NCBI RefSeq assembly: GCF_058153355.1
Contig: NZ_JBLWLY010000002.1
DNA: 64,000 bases
Source: a plasmid
Reading direction: 5' to 3' (one strand)
A program made the position numbers. How positions within the stretch are numbered: position 1 is the first letter of the stretch; every line of letters starts with the position of its first letter. Shown in pieces: positions 1 to 6,000 of the stretch.

Positions 1-3000
1 GTGACTAATCTTCAACAAACTTATTACCGCCAGGTAAAGAACCCGAATCCGGTGTTCACACCCCGTGAAGGTGCCCGGACGCTTCCGTTCTGCGGGAAAC
101 TGATGGAAAAGGCGGTGGGCTTCACCTCCCGTTTTGATTTCGCCATTCATGTGGCACATGCCCGTTCGCTTGGTCTGCGTCGGCGCATGCCACCGGTACT
201 ACGTCGCCGGGCCATTGATGCGCTGCTGCAGGGGCTGTGTTTCCACTATGACCCGCTGGCCAACCGCGTTCAGTGCTCCATCACCACGCTGGCCATTGAG
301 TGCGGACTGGCGACGGAGTCTGATGCCGGAGTACTCTCCATCACCCGAGCCACCCGTGCCCTGACCTCCCTGGCTGAGCTGGGGCTGATTACCTACCAGA
401 CGGAATATGACCCGCTTATCGGGTGCTACATTCCGACCGATATCACGTTCACACCAGCACTGTTTGCCGCTCTCGATGTGTCTGAGGTGGCGGTGGCTTC
501 CGCACGCCGCAGTCGTGTGGAATGGGAAAACAGACAGCGCAAGAAGCAGGGACTGGATACCCTGGGTATGGATGAACTGATGGCGAAAGCCTGGCGTTTT
601 GTGCGTGAGCGTTTCCGCAGTTACCAGACAGAGCTTAAGTCCCGGGGAATAAAGCGTGCCCGTGCGCGTCGTGATGCGAACAGGGAACGTCAGGATATTG
701 TCACCCTGGTGAAACGGCAGCTGACGCGTGAAATCTCGGAAGGGCGCTTCACTAACAATCGTGAGGCGGTAAAATGCGAAGTGGAGCGTCGTGTGAAGGA
801 GCGCATGATTCTGTCACGTAACCGTAATTACAGCCGGCTGGCCACAGCCTCCCCCTGAAAGTGACCTACATGTAACCACAGCGTGCCGCCTTCCATGCCG
901 CTGGCGCGGCATATGTTGGTGGCTGTGTCTGAAAGGTTATATACTCTGCATAAAACCTGACAACACGCTGATTACCAGGCGAATGGGCATTATTCCTCCG
1001 GTTATCGCCTGCTTGTGAAACAATATCACCGGGGCGAATATCGATACTCTGACTCGTTATACCCATACGTGCGACATCAGAAAACCTGTAATTGCCCTTT
1101 ATTGAATGAAGGGAGGAGTCAACTATGAATAGCACCACACATTACGAAAACGCCAATTTCCTGCGCGAGCTGGCCGAAAGCCTGCCTCGTATTTTGCCAG
1201 AAGGCAGTACAGACAAGTCTGCACTATTGCAACGCCTCGCTAATGAAGAACTGGCACGGGCGGTATACGACGAACAGGTACGAGCGAAAGTTGCCGCTGC
1301 TCGCGCCGATAAACGGCCGGGAATGAGTTCCGCGCAACTGCGCCAGCAACTACAGGGATAATGAGATGGACGCTCCAGATTTTACGGTATCAAAGTACCA
1401 GACTGGATCGTTGCAATACGTCCTGAAAAATTAGGAGCGTCCACATGAAAGTATCAACTCTTGGTATCGACCTGGCAAAGAACGTTTTTCAGCTTCATGG
1501 TGTCGATCATGAAGGCCATACTATTTTGCGTAAAAAACTCACCCGGGCTAAGTTTGTTCAGTTTGTGATTCAACTGGAACCTTGTCTGATTGGCATGGAA
1601 GCCTGCTCATCCAGTCATTATTTTGCGCGATTATTCACCCGCTATGGTCATGAGGTAAAACTCATACCTCCGCAGTATGTGAAGCCTTATGTGAAAACGA
1701 ACAAGACGGATGCAGCAGATGCTGAAGCAATCTGCGAAGCGGTAACCCGTCCGAATATGCGTTTTGTTCAGATAAAAACCGAAGAGCAGCAGGCCGTTTT
1801 AGCGTTACACACTGAACGGGGAATACTTATCCGTGAGCGGATTGCCTGTGCCAATAGTTTAAGAGCGTAAGCGCATCATTTAAACCGTCTTTCGCCTCCC
1901 TTTCCTGTTTCCGATACTAATGTCCATTTTCGCAGTAAAAGGACATTTAAGATGAATGCACGAAAGGCGGTACTGGCAGATAATCCGGAATTGATCCTGC
2001 GTGTGCTACAGCTGAGATTTGACGAGTCACTGTCGTACCCGCGCATTTCTGCGCAGACTGGTGTCAGCAAAACCGCCATTTTTTCTCTGGTGAGGCGATT
2101 TCACCAGTAAGGCAGTATGACTTTCCGTGAGACAGATGCTGGCCAACGTGGGATATTTAACGCGGGTTAACATCGTTGTCAGAGCCGCATGGGTGAGCTG
2201 TTGCTACACCCCGGTATTTCCACCACGGAGGCCAGCATGAACAACAATAACACATTGTACGTCGGGTTAGATGTTCACAAAGAATCGATTACTGTCGCTT
2301 ATGCTATCAATTCAGAACCTGTTGAACTGATGGGTAAAATTGGCACATCACCTACTGATATTCAGAATCTTTGTAAACGTCTCAGGTCAAAGTCATCGCA
2401 GGTCAGTATCGTTTATGAAGCGGGGCCCTGTGGTTATGGACTTTATCGTCGGCTGGTGAAATCCGGTTTTGACTGCATGGTCTGCGCCCCCTCACTTATC
2501 CCGAAAAAACCGGGGGAGCGGGTTAAAACCGATCGCCGTGATGCCATCAGACTTGTGCGTTCACTGCGTGCAGGAGATCTTTCTGCTGTCTACGTACCCG
2601 GCATTGAAGATGAGGCATTCCGGGATTTGGCCCGGGCATGGGCATCTGCCCGCGATGATTTACGGCATGCAAGGCAACGTCTGAAATCGTTTCTTCTGGT
2701 TCATGGGGTCCATTATGTCGGGCGAGCAGATTGGGGCCCTGCACACCGACGCTGGCTCAGCAAATACTCATTCGAAAGTCCCTGGCGACAATTAGCTTTT
2801 GACGAACACCGTCGTACAATAGAAGACCGGCAGGCACAATGTGAACGGCTGGAATCCGCCCTGAAGGAGGCCGTTACCGAATGGAGGCTGTATCCGGTAG
2901 TAGAGGCGCTGCAAGCCATGCGAGGGATTCAGTTTATTACTGCGGTTGGATTAATTTCTGAACTGGGTGATCTGACCCGTTTTGAACATCCACGACAACT

Positions 3001-6000
3001 GATGTCATGGTTTGGTATCACGCCATCAGAATATTCATCGGGTGGAAGCAGACATCAGGGCAGCATTACCAAAGCCGGAAACAGCTATGCCAGAAAGCTA
3101 TTGGTCGAGGCAGCGTGGAGTTACCGTCATCCGGCACGCATCAGTCCGGCAATACAAAAAAGGCAGGAAAATTTACCCCGCCCCGTCATTGACAGAGCAT
3201 GGGATGCTCAACTCAGGCTTTGTAAGAGGTATCGAAAACTTCAGGCCAAAGGAAAGAATGTCAATATTACAATTGTTGCTGTTGCACGTGAGCTGGCGGG
3301 TTTTATCTGGGATATGGGCCGAATAGCAATGTCTGTCGCACAACAACCACAATGTCACAAATAAAAAATGAGAATAACCAGTTCCCTGAAGGCGACGTAG
3401 CCCGGTACAAGAGTAACCCACGTTAGCGCTTGGCGACGGCGGAACAAAGCTGATTCGCGACGTAAGAAAGTGGCAGGCTCATATGACGGACCTCTGTAAT
3501 GCGGTATCCAACCCGCGAATATCAGCGTGATTCACCGTCGGATTTACTGCTACGTCGCCCTCAGGGAATTAAACCTAAAAAGAAAATCGTCAAAATTAGA
3601 GATTCCGGTTTGACACGGAAAGTCATATCAGCGTAAACTGACCGCCGTATGTAGCCATTAAGCCTGTATTGGTAACGTAGGTGCCCACCTTTTCAACCTA
3701 GTGGACACCTGTTATGGAACAGAAAGCATTATCTGCAGAACCCCGCAGATCATTTTCAAATGAGTTTAAACTTCAAATGGTTAAACTGGCTTCACAACCA
3801 GGAGCCTCTGTTGCCCGTATTGCCCGGGAACACGATATCAATGATAACCTGCTGTTCAAATGGCTCAGGCTCTGGCAGAACGAAGGGCGCATATCGCGGC
3901 GTCTTCCGGTAACAACCTCTTCTGACACTGGCGTTGAATTATTACCTGTGGAGATAACGCCGGATGAGCCGAAAGAACCGGTGGCTGCTCTTACTCCGTC
4001 TTTATCTACTCAGACTACAGTTAGTGCCAGCTCCTGCAAGGTGGAGTTCCGTCACGGTAACATGACGCTGGAAAATCCTTCACCAGAGCTGCTCACAGTG
4101 TTGCTCCGTGAACTGACCGGGAGGGGACGATGATCTCACTCCCGTCAGGCACCCGCATCTGGCTCGTTGCTGGGATAACCGATATGCGTAAGTCTTTCAA
4201 CGGGCTGGGTGAACAGGTACAGCATGTGCTGAATGATAATCCCTTCTCCGGTCACCTGTTCATCTTCCGTGGCCGACGGGGTGACATGATTAAAATCCTG
4301 TGGGCTGATGCTGATGGTCTGTGCCTGTTCACCAGACGCCTGGAGGAAGGCCAGTTTATCTGGCCTGCTGTGCGTGACGGCAAGGTATCCATTACCCGCT
4401 CGCAACTGGCAATGCTCCTCGATAAGCTGGACTGGCGTCAGCCAAAAACATCCCGCCTTAACGCACAGACAATGTTGTAAAAATGTCATGGCCGGATTAT
4501 AAAAACGGCCATGAATCAAAAATACCTCATTCGCATTGCAGAACTGGAATGCCAGCTCCGTCAGAAAGACCAGCAACTGAGTCTGGTTGAAGAGACGGAG
4601 GCCTTCCTGCGCTCTGCACTGGCCCGCGCCGAAGAAAAGATCGAAGAAGATGAACGGGAAATAGAACATCTGCGGGCTCAGATAGAAAAACTGCGCCGGA
4701 TGCTGTTCGGTACCCGTTCTGAAAAACTGCGTCGTGAAGTTGAACAGGCTGAGGCCCTGCTGAAACAACGCGAACAGGACAGTGATCGTTACAGTGGGCG
4801 GGAAGACGATCCGCAGGTTCCCCGCCAGTTGCGACAGTCTCGTCATCGTCGCCCGTTACCGGAGCATCTGCCCCGCGAAATAAATCGCCTGGAGCCAGAA
4901 GAAAGCTGTTGCCCGGAGTGTGGCGGTGAGCTGGATTATCTGGGGGAAGTCAGCGCAGAACAACTGGAACTGGTGAGCAGCGCTCTGAAAGTGATCCGCA
5001 CAGAACGGGTAAAAAAAGCCTGTACAAAATGTGACTGCATCGTTGAAGCACCGGCACCATCCCGTCCGATAGAGCGTGGTATCGCGGGCCCGGGGTTACT
5101 TGCCCGCGTGTTAACGGGAAAATACTGCGAACACCTGCCACTGTATCGTCAGAGTGAAATTTTTGCCCGTCAGGGTGTCGAACTGAGCCGTGCATTATTC
5201 TCCAACTGGGTTGACGCGTGCTGCCAGTTAATGACGCCGCTGAATGATGCTCTGTACCGTTATGTGATGAACAGCCGCAAAGTTCACACTGATGACACAC
5301 CAGTAAAAGTGCTGGCACCGGGCAGGAAGAAGGCGAAAACAGGATACTTTGGTTAATGTTGGTAGTGGTGGTGCTGAAATGGCGCTTTTATCCGGCACAG
5401 GAATACTCTTTTTATTTTTTCGAATGAAAGCATCTTCGCCATATTTTCTATATTTTTCAAGCCAGTTGCATACAGTACCAAAGGCTGGTATTCCGTGTTT
5501 TACCGCTACTTCACGAACAGAAAAACAGTCATCCACGACTTCTTTTACTACTGTGAGTTTTAACTCAGCAGAATAGCGTCCTTTTTTACCTGTAAGTATG
5601 CTTATCCCATGTTCCCGATAGGCATAAGCCCATTTTCTTACTGTGCAGGGACTGATACCGTACATCCTTGCTACAGATTTCAGACTCAGCTCTCCCTCTA
5701 GGTACTTTTCTGATACTACCTTTTTGAACTCCAATGAAAACTTTTCCATGCATCCTCAGTTTTTGGTCTGGTGTCTAACCTTTGGGGCGCACTTCAAAAA
5801 GAACAGTTCGCTTCGAAACTCAGCCTGGATACCAGCTCCAGCACGACTGGGGCGAAGTTGAGGTGGAGGTTGCCGGGCAACGGTGCAAAGTTAACTTTGC
5901 GGTTAATACGCTGGGGTTCTCCCGCCGCTTCCATGTCTTCGCCGCACCAAAACAGGATGCTGAGCATACCTACGAATCACTGGTTCGCGCCTTCCGCTAC

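Follow-up and report, generated by a model that had tools for sequence, protein, structure and literature searches.

Within the IS110 family of insertion sequences (IS) and its IS1111 group, an RNA that is transcribed, bound by the recombinase and required has been shown for ISEc11, ISKpn4, ISPa11, ISPst6, ISEc21 and IS621 only. The IS1111 systems with seekRNAs (ISEc11, ISKpn4, ISPa11; PMC11187229, PMC11208160) combine a DEDD recombinase with subterminal repeats and a long downstream non-coding region. In their seekRNAs the match to the target's top strand lies 5' of the match to the bottom strand, and the two overlap at the crossover. Insertion is site-specific and leaves no duplication, and the -35 and -10 halves of a promoter are located in opposite ends, where they would meet in a circle. 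In IS621 (PMC11208160; Hiraizumi et al. 2024, PMC11208158), the two sides of an internal loop pair with opposite target strands, their overlap being a short core; another segment of the RNA is a copy of the donor end, and the base adjoining it follows the logic of “handshake guides”, which must pair with non-cognate DNA and not with cognate DNA. Likenesses to both systems are found in ISSso6, a copy of which was analysed here in a stretch of 64,000 nucleotides (nt) from a plasmid (NCBI RefSeq assembly GCF_058153355.1, contig NZ_JBLWLY010000002.1; the whole stretch is called the window below).

The right end of this copy (3365-3631) very probably encodes, on the + strand, a structured bridge/seek RNA of ~190 nt which would guide the DEDD recombinase; its expression we infer. 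We observed the boundaries of the element, its uninterrupted target, a conserved and covarying fold, and covariation of guides with targets. By analogy with the family, the RNA would be transcribed, processed and bound by the recombinase, a circle would be the intermediate, and the segment 3519-3526 would have a role in donor recognition. ISSso6 and a right-end guide RNA of the IS1111 group are already known, and neither the member nor the kind is new. The supplementary table of Durrant et al. 2024 (PMC11208160) contains the entry “ISSso6, RE, IS1111”, in which RE stands for the right end of the element as the place of the bridge RNA predicted by their models.

The element and the parts by which it was assigned are located as follows.

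2112-3631, + strand, ISSso6, intact copy of 1520 bp, no target-site duplication
2237-3364, + strand, ISSso6 transposase/recombinase gene, 375 amino acids (aa), the longest version of the open reading frame (ORF) starting at 2189
2116-2129, + strand, left subterminal inverted repeat TATGACTTTCCGTG, 14/14 complementary to 3614-3627
3614-3627, + strand, right subterminal repeat CACGGAAAGTCATA, overlapped by TTGACA at 3610-3615

This segment is an intact ISSso6 and a member of the IS1111 group of the IS110 family. Its 375-aa protein is 100% identical to the one given for ISSso6 in the supplementary material of Siddiquee et al. 2024 (PMC11187229), and it matches NF033542 (“IS110 family RNA-guided transposase”) end to end with 273.9 bits (cut-off 140), in agreement with the full-length IS110-family transposase described in an earlier note on this DNA. 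Copies with 99.5-100% identity are present in 737 plasmid records, annotated as “IS110-like element ISSso6 family transposase”. Members of the IS1111 group have a DEDD (RuvC-like) N-terminal domain and a PF02371 C-terminal domain with a G--P----S/T-G motif. All close relatives carry PF01548 and PF02371 according to precomputed domains, and GITPSEYSSG in the ISSso6 translation fits the motif of the latter. The subterminal repeats, each 4 nt inside the element end, are perfect over 14 bp (7-17 bp in the IS1111 group), and ISSso6 was therefore placed in this group; in relatives, variants of these repeats are altered on both arms together. Two further features of the group are a non-coding region longer downstream of the transposase gene than upstream (267 vs 125 nt in ISSso6) and site-specific insertion without duplication, seen here in the restored target in loci L007 and L008 and in four distinct sites.

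Element ends were delimited against an uninterrupted target. In silico deletion of 2112-3631 restores GTAAGCGTAAACTGACCGCCGTATGTAGCC, and other plasmids (L007, L008) carry GTAAGCGTAAACTGACC without interruption where this IS66-family element has its left end. When five ISSso6 copies were compared (the one in the window and four others), their left flanks diverged right up to GTAAG, while the right flanks had CGTNAA(C/G) in common and were divergent beyond it. As AG occurs at either junction, the boundaries are uncertain by at most 2 nt. The true non-coding ends are thus 125 nt on the left (2112-2236) and 267 nt on the right (3365-3631). The downstream flank is non-coding as the earlier note had stated, and its extent had to be reduced from about 300 nt, up to 3670, to these 267 nt. 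The upstream flank of 366 nt did not hold, since 1867-2111 belongs to two IS66-family elements and only 2112-2236 to ISSso6.

Segments of the right-end RNA, with coordinates projected onto the window from an RNAalifold consensus, are the following.

3379-3571, + strand, bridge/seek RNA core, ~190 nt, seven helices
3379-3401 / 3549-3571, + strand, helix H1, slightly longer than the inverted repeat noticed earlier
3402-3404 / 3487-3489, + strand, helix H2
3411-3414 / 3477-3480, + strand, helix H3
3418-3421 / 3470-3473, + strand, helix H4
3423-3432, + strand, right-target guide UUAGCGCUUG, 5' side of the internal loop between H4 and H5
3433-3440 / 3449-3458, + strand, helix H5
3460-3469, + strand, left-target guide, 3' side of the internal loop between H4 and H5
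3501-3504 / 3513-3516, + strand, helix H6
3519-3526, + strand, AUAUCAG and one variable base, candidate left-donor guide at the junction of H6 and H7, copying the right-end tip ATATCAG
3528-3531 / 3537-3540, + strand, helix H7

The 19-bp inverted repeat with one mismatch, reported in the earlier note, is present and represents the basal stem of the RNA. Its arms (3382-3401 / 3549-3568) are 20 nt long, 95% complementary with one mismatch, and 147 nt apart. It is the best repeat within 1300-3800, and a 19/20 repeat in 2.5 kb would be expected by chance at ~2e-4, according to our own estimate made without a tool. The 195-nt region so enclosed has a folding energy of -79.1 kcal/mol (z = -5.4, from 200 shuffles). 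Relatives were obtained as 77 loci in a search of a genome collection, nearly all from Burkholderiaceae and with 70-81% protein identity, and their right ends can be aligned over ~190 nt except for a few hypervariable patches. RNAalifold, applied to 37 non-identical sequences, disclosed 49 pairs in seven helices, a structure that is conserved among 36 relatives. Standard pairs occupy 98.3% of the cells, compared to 31-41% when partners are slid by 1-3 columns; compensatory changes on both sides occur in 10 pairs, and the observed counts were reached in 0 out of 500 shuffles. As expected of a bridge RNA, the guides are carried by a loop of this conserved structure, the one separating H4 from H5. 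The internal loop between H2 and H3 (3405-3410 / 3481-3486) is also variable, and no relation of it was found to the target, to the subterminal repeats or to the first left-end base.

A simple search for complementarity between the RNA and its own flanks gave many matches of 6-7 nt and did not by itself identify the guides; a comparative analysis was needed. The two guide patches are the most variable parts of the RNA among relatives, and they change along with the flanks of each insertion. The left guides of relatives (UUUAG, GCAAG, UUAAG, ACUAG, and others) equal the five bases left of the element, while the reverse complement of the 5' patch equals the bases right of it. For the right guide, 149 out of 198 right-flank positions pair in 33 distinct insertions, against a permutation mean of 88 (standard deviation 6.2), and none of 5000 permutations reaches 149. 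For the left guide, there are 94 identities out of 111 at the three positions 5' of the core in 37 insertions (permutation mean 47, standard deviation 5, 0/5000). When mutual information was computed between all RNA columns and all flank positions, with no register assumed, an antiparallel diagonal emerged, connecting right-flank bases 1-5 (RT1..RT5) with 3428..3424. The scan also connected the second core base with 3429, LT-3 with 3464, and LT-4 with 3463, the last two being the bases left of the core. In ISSso6 itself, 3423-3432 is complementary to the top strand of TAAG|CGTNAA, across the crossover, and GUAAG at 3462-3466 reads in the sense of the left target half and the core, and would pair with the bottom strand. 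Two covarying segments for opposite target strands, overlapping at the crossover, are expected of a bridge RNA. The proposal that one of the two flanks encodes such an RNA is thus supported for the downstream flank by the covarying fold and guide-target covariation, judged from sequence comparisons; the upstream flank showed no guide covariation.

Junctions of these insertions were also inspected. The left-junction dinucleotide is AG wherever the junction is readable, while at the right junction AG was recorded 25 times, AA 12 times and GG once (L014, L015, L017, L025, L029, L036, and others). By eye, AA occurs where the right-target guide has U at the matching position, the base that mutual information ties to 3429, and this points to a core of one base or to tolerance of a wobble. 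In L043 and L053, the guide predicts a left flank ending in CTAG, but what is found is CATAG-AAG-TCAGTATGAC, in which AAG stands as three additional bases after a TAG and before the usual left end.

The site to which both guides point is the tip of the terminal inverted repeats of IS66-family elements, into which ISSso6 homes. All four distinct ISSso6 right flanks show GTAAG|CGTNAA(C/G), and all are located at tips of IS66-family repeats. In the window and in L003, ISSso6 is followed by the IS66 tnpA, tnpB and transposase gene, in L001 and L002 an opposite-strand IS66 transposase follows with its C-terminal end, and in L004 a homologous remnant of an IS66 repeat lies beside it. The preferred target repeat is GTAAGCGTNAAC. 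We found no report of this target in the literature, a survey which did not cover ISfinder. Homing into IS66-family ends explains the frequent co-occurrence of the two on virulence plasmids of Shigella and E. coli.

Several points weigh against a right-end bridge RNA in the form described. Rfam 15, searched over positions 1-8000 of the window with E up to 1, returned no match to any bridge-RNA family, and the covariance-model search proposed earlier thus provided no independent model; as far as could be seen, Rfam lacks a family for this RNA, and this null result says little. Covariation was derived from related sequences, mostly of Burkholderiaceae, and their shared ancestry inflates the permutation statistics; near-identical RNA backbones with different guides are found at different insertion sites. 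At its own site, the right guide is imperfect in 2 out of 10 positions, one being a G-T wobble and the other an A-A mismatch. Element tips and donor-like RNA segments are near-invariant in the family and out of reach of covariation, and in the mutual-information scan no RNA column tracked the variable centre of the subterminal repeats. For ISSso6, the transcript, its ends and its binding to the protein are what we infer from the family, and once mature, the RNA may fall short of the 190 nt of the fold.

Donor recognition can be approached through the segment 3519-3526, whose role as a donor guide is suggested by analogy only. Its last base, 3526, is the same as the first right-flank base in 36 out of 38 insertions, and the same as the first left-end base in none out of 28. 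This pattern resembles the handshake guides of IS621, but could equally reflect RNA-RNA pairing of 3524-3526 with the right-target guide. Should the target and not the donor be read by the base adjoining the donor-like segment, the handshake principle would extend to the IS1111 group. In addition, CAGTA of the left end has a complement in UACUG (3545-3549). The longer UACUGCU (3545-3551), considered as a right-donor guide, can pair with the start of the left end but overlaps the top of H1, and it shows no covariation with the variable first left-end base. A separate observation concerns L050, in which the right-end tip ATATCAGT is directly followed by GCGATCCACCGTCGAGACTTACTGCTACGCCGCCCTCA, the 3' part of the RNA gene downstream of the internal AUAUCAG. 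The arrangement points to a recombination of the true end with its copy in the RNA gene, or to faulty assembly of this 1.7-kb contig.

ISSso6 also differs from the compared systems. Its recombinase has 375 aa, unlike the 330-350 aa quoted for IS1111-family transposases, and is ~17-25% identical to other IS in the published identity matrix (PMC11187229). The conserved fold of ~190 nt exceeds the peak forms of 82-96 nt in IS1111 systems, and the target is an IS66-family terminal repeat, unlike theirs. In contrast to IS621, the RNA lies in the right end and not in the left, and the order of guides is reversed, with the top-strand guide on the 5' side in ISSso6, the order reported for seekRNAs of IS1111 elements, and on the 3' side in IS621. 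The candidate donor segment is placed in a multi-branch junction instead of a simple internal loop, the core is A(G) and not CT, and the subterminal repeats are long. As an IS110-family element homing into another mobile element, ISSso6 can be compared with IS4321/IS5075, which use Tn21-type repeats, and with ISEc21, which uses IS3-family genes, although its host is the terminal repeat of the IS66 family.

The reading that survives best beside the full-length RNA is that the working RNA consists of the short guide arm only (~3411-3480, 70 nt), with the basal stem belonging to a precursor or serving as a signal for processing. The RNA that co-purifies with IS1111 transposases is predominantly 82-96 nt long, alongside a form of ~150 nt, and both target matches are contained in the short form; ISEc11, with its 82-nt “peak” seekRNA, is a precedent, and both ISSso6 target guides are inside H3-H5. 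However, H1 is the best conserved helix and includes five pairs with compensatory change, and the base that tracks the right flank in 36 out of 38 insertions belongs to 3519-3526, outside the short arm. We consider this short form rather unlikely, and it concerns the extent of the RNA, not its kind.

If the inverted repeat acted as DNA, as a protein-bound hairpin or cruciform, a terminator or an unrelated palindromic repeat, there would be no guide RNA. A near-perfect 20-bp repeat just past the stop codon could in principle be a terminator or a protein site, but no U-tract follows the stem, and a terminator scan of the + strand was negative at this place. With 147 nt between them, the arms surround conserved helices, the enclosed loop covaries with insertion sites, and within the window the repeat occurs inside ISSso6 only. 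In addition, G-U is common at several pairs (31 out of 37 sequences at column pair 4/204, 25 out of 37 at 45/110), and these would be C-A mismatches on the opposite strand. G-U in most sequences at these pairs, tolerated on one strand only, indicates an RNA from the + strand and not a DNA cruciform or the opposite strand, and a DNA function is highly unlikely.

A bridge RNA upstream of the transposase gene (1871-2236), as in the IS110-group element IS621, was also weighed. The parts of the left end that bear on it, together with the outward hexamer of the right end, are listed here.

2112-2236, + strand, ISSso6 left end, structured leader, with the candidate -10 hexamer CAGTAT at 2113-2118 and the left subterminal repeat
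3610-3615, + strand, outward -35 hexamer TTGACA, overlapping the right subterminal repeat and present in nearly all aligned relatives

Region 2107-2240 folds at z = -2.7 and contains a covarying hairpin (2191-2211, with compensatory changes among relatives), and a few IS1111-type elements have upstream non-coding regions. On the other hand, 1867-2111 belongs to the two IS66-family elements, the true left end of 125 nt has no mutual-information diagonal with target positions and no match of at least 7 nt to the conserved target, and it is the right end to which the published table assigns the ISSso6 RNA. An upstream bridge RNA is therefore extremely improbable. The left end is a structured leader and not a bridge RNA. 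According to the fold and the alignment of 37 relatives, an invariant long-range stem (2136-2144 / 2230-2238) covers the ribosome-binding site and AUG, and the leader may exert translational control.

That the downstream conservation reflects a small protein, for which an ATG-initiated ORF of 45 codons (3499-3636, 45 aa) is available, is scarcely credible, as single-base indels among relatives fall inside this ORF (alignment columns ~140 and 174), it runs out of the element with a length varying by copy (45, 108 and 68 aa), and conservation follows helices and not codons.

When the element ends are abutted in a modelled junction, TTGACA comes 17 nt from CAGTAT, a match at the level of sequence, and this geometry is as shown for the junction promoter of ISEc11. 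In the integrated state, TTGACA (3610-3615) and TAAACT (3634-3639) are separated by an 18-nt spacer and give 10/12 consensus matches. This second pair faces the IS66 tnpA that starts at 3714, and other IS66 repeat variants (CGTCAACG) are without the TAAACT -10. From these sequence elements, it can be proposed that ISSso6 insertion may switch on or raise expression of the tnpA of its host IS66.

In the proposed mechanism, ISSso6 is probably excised as a circle with the predicted junction ...GTCATATCAG|GCAGTATGAC..., at which TTGACA and CAGTAT would form a promoter for the recombinase and the RNA. The two loop guides would jointly specify GTAAG|CGTNAA(C/G), the IS66 repeat tip at which the ISSso6 copy sits, and the predicted target for insertion is GTAAGCGTAAAC. 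The complex of RNA and recombinase would recombine the circle junction with the target at their common A(G) core, which would leave no duplication.

The base-level map of the ISSso6 RNA, with helices, both target guides and the candidate donor segment, is of direct use for designing reprogramming experiments. The guide map and the IS66 target add detail and do not represent a new kind of finding, and they carry little weight as discovery. On a tentative and quite possible reading, the ISSso6 clade is an RNA-guided lineage specialised in homing into other mobile elements and retargeted by one loop.

For the confusing stretch around ISSso6, the annotation is corrected here: four insertion sequences are nested in one another, and there is no tandem gene pair. 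In addition to ISSso6, the stretch contains the following segments.

1351-1866, + strand, dead 5' remnant of an unnamed IS1111/IS110-type IS, with the left end and transposase codons 1-141 (ORF 1445-1870)
1867-2106, + strand, left end of IS66-family element #1, with the terminal repeat GTAAGCG and the first 52 tnpA codons (1952-2107)
2107-2111, + strand, GTAAG, first 5 bp of the left inverted repeat of IS66-family element #2 and left half of the ISSso6 target site
3632-5356, + strand, rest of IS66-family element #2, with the remaining left inverted repeat CGTAAACTGACC... from 3632, then tnpA/tnpB/tnpC
3714-4133, 4130-4480, and from 4511, + strand, ORF calls for tnpA, tnpB and the start of tnpC of IS66-family element #2

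The first segment includes the truncated N-terminal ORF of IS110 type recognised in the earlier note (1445-1870, 141 aa), and NF033542 matches it with 154.8 bits over the N-terminal 145 positions of the profile (2-145 of 343). Its relation to the ISSso6 gene as a tandem pair was not upheld, as the two come from unrelated elements. The remnant lacks the C-terminal domain and the entire right end, and therefore lacks a bridge RNA of its own. It is 99.8% identical to a sequence in the chromosome of E. coli CP134663 (L005), where the gene runs on; the identity ends at 1866, at the start of GTAAGCG. Full-length copies of the element are present in 176 E. coli genomes, with “IS110 family transposase” as the only RefSeq label.

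IS66-family element #1 cuts this remnant and is itself cut at 2106. ORF 1952-2110 corresponds to positions 2-42 of 190 in NF038385 IS66_access_TnpA (E = 1.5e-13). The element ends exactly at the terminal GTAAG of IS66-family element #2, and a similar tight stacking of IS66-family ends is seen in L001. ISSso6 then splits the repeat of IS66-family element #2 between GTAAG and CGT, and in the part of that element which follows, 3714-4130 has matches to NF038385 and NF047595. The only match that Rfam gave was a sub-threshold one to the AfaR small RNA on the minus strand of 3613-3706 (36.3 bits, gathering score 100, E = 0.0015). It spans the tip of ISSso6 and the IS66 repeat and leader, and the AfaR model may include an IS66-type end.

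A blastn search with ISSso6 found no second copy in the window. Further IS66-type repeats (GTAAGCGTCTTATC..., GTAAGCGGCTCGCC...) are located at 47561 (+), 55068 (-), 52607 (+) and 55762 (-), all without ISSso6, and these four unoccupied repeats differ from GTAAGCGTNAAC at positions read by 3423-3425. A third, decayed N-terminal fragment of IS110 type lies at 11467-11727, with 31% identity over 87 aa to the 1445-1867 fragment (tblastn E = 2.6e-9).

The Burkholderiaceae relatives L014, L029, L036 and L060, with GCAAG or GUAAG as the left guide, are inserted in GISK|RG codons according to their reconstructed sites. GISK|RG is the most conserved C-terminal motif of other transposase genes of the IS110/IS1111 family, and the ISSso6 guide differs from the guides of these four mainly on the right-target side. 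Finally, on plasmid pWS0115A_186 (L008, ~2460-2540), ISShdy1, an IS110-like element on the opposite strand, abuts the outer edge of the same IS66 left repeat, and its annotated coding sequence runs 32 nt into the repeat. ISShdy1 may be a second IS110-type element that uses IS66 ends.

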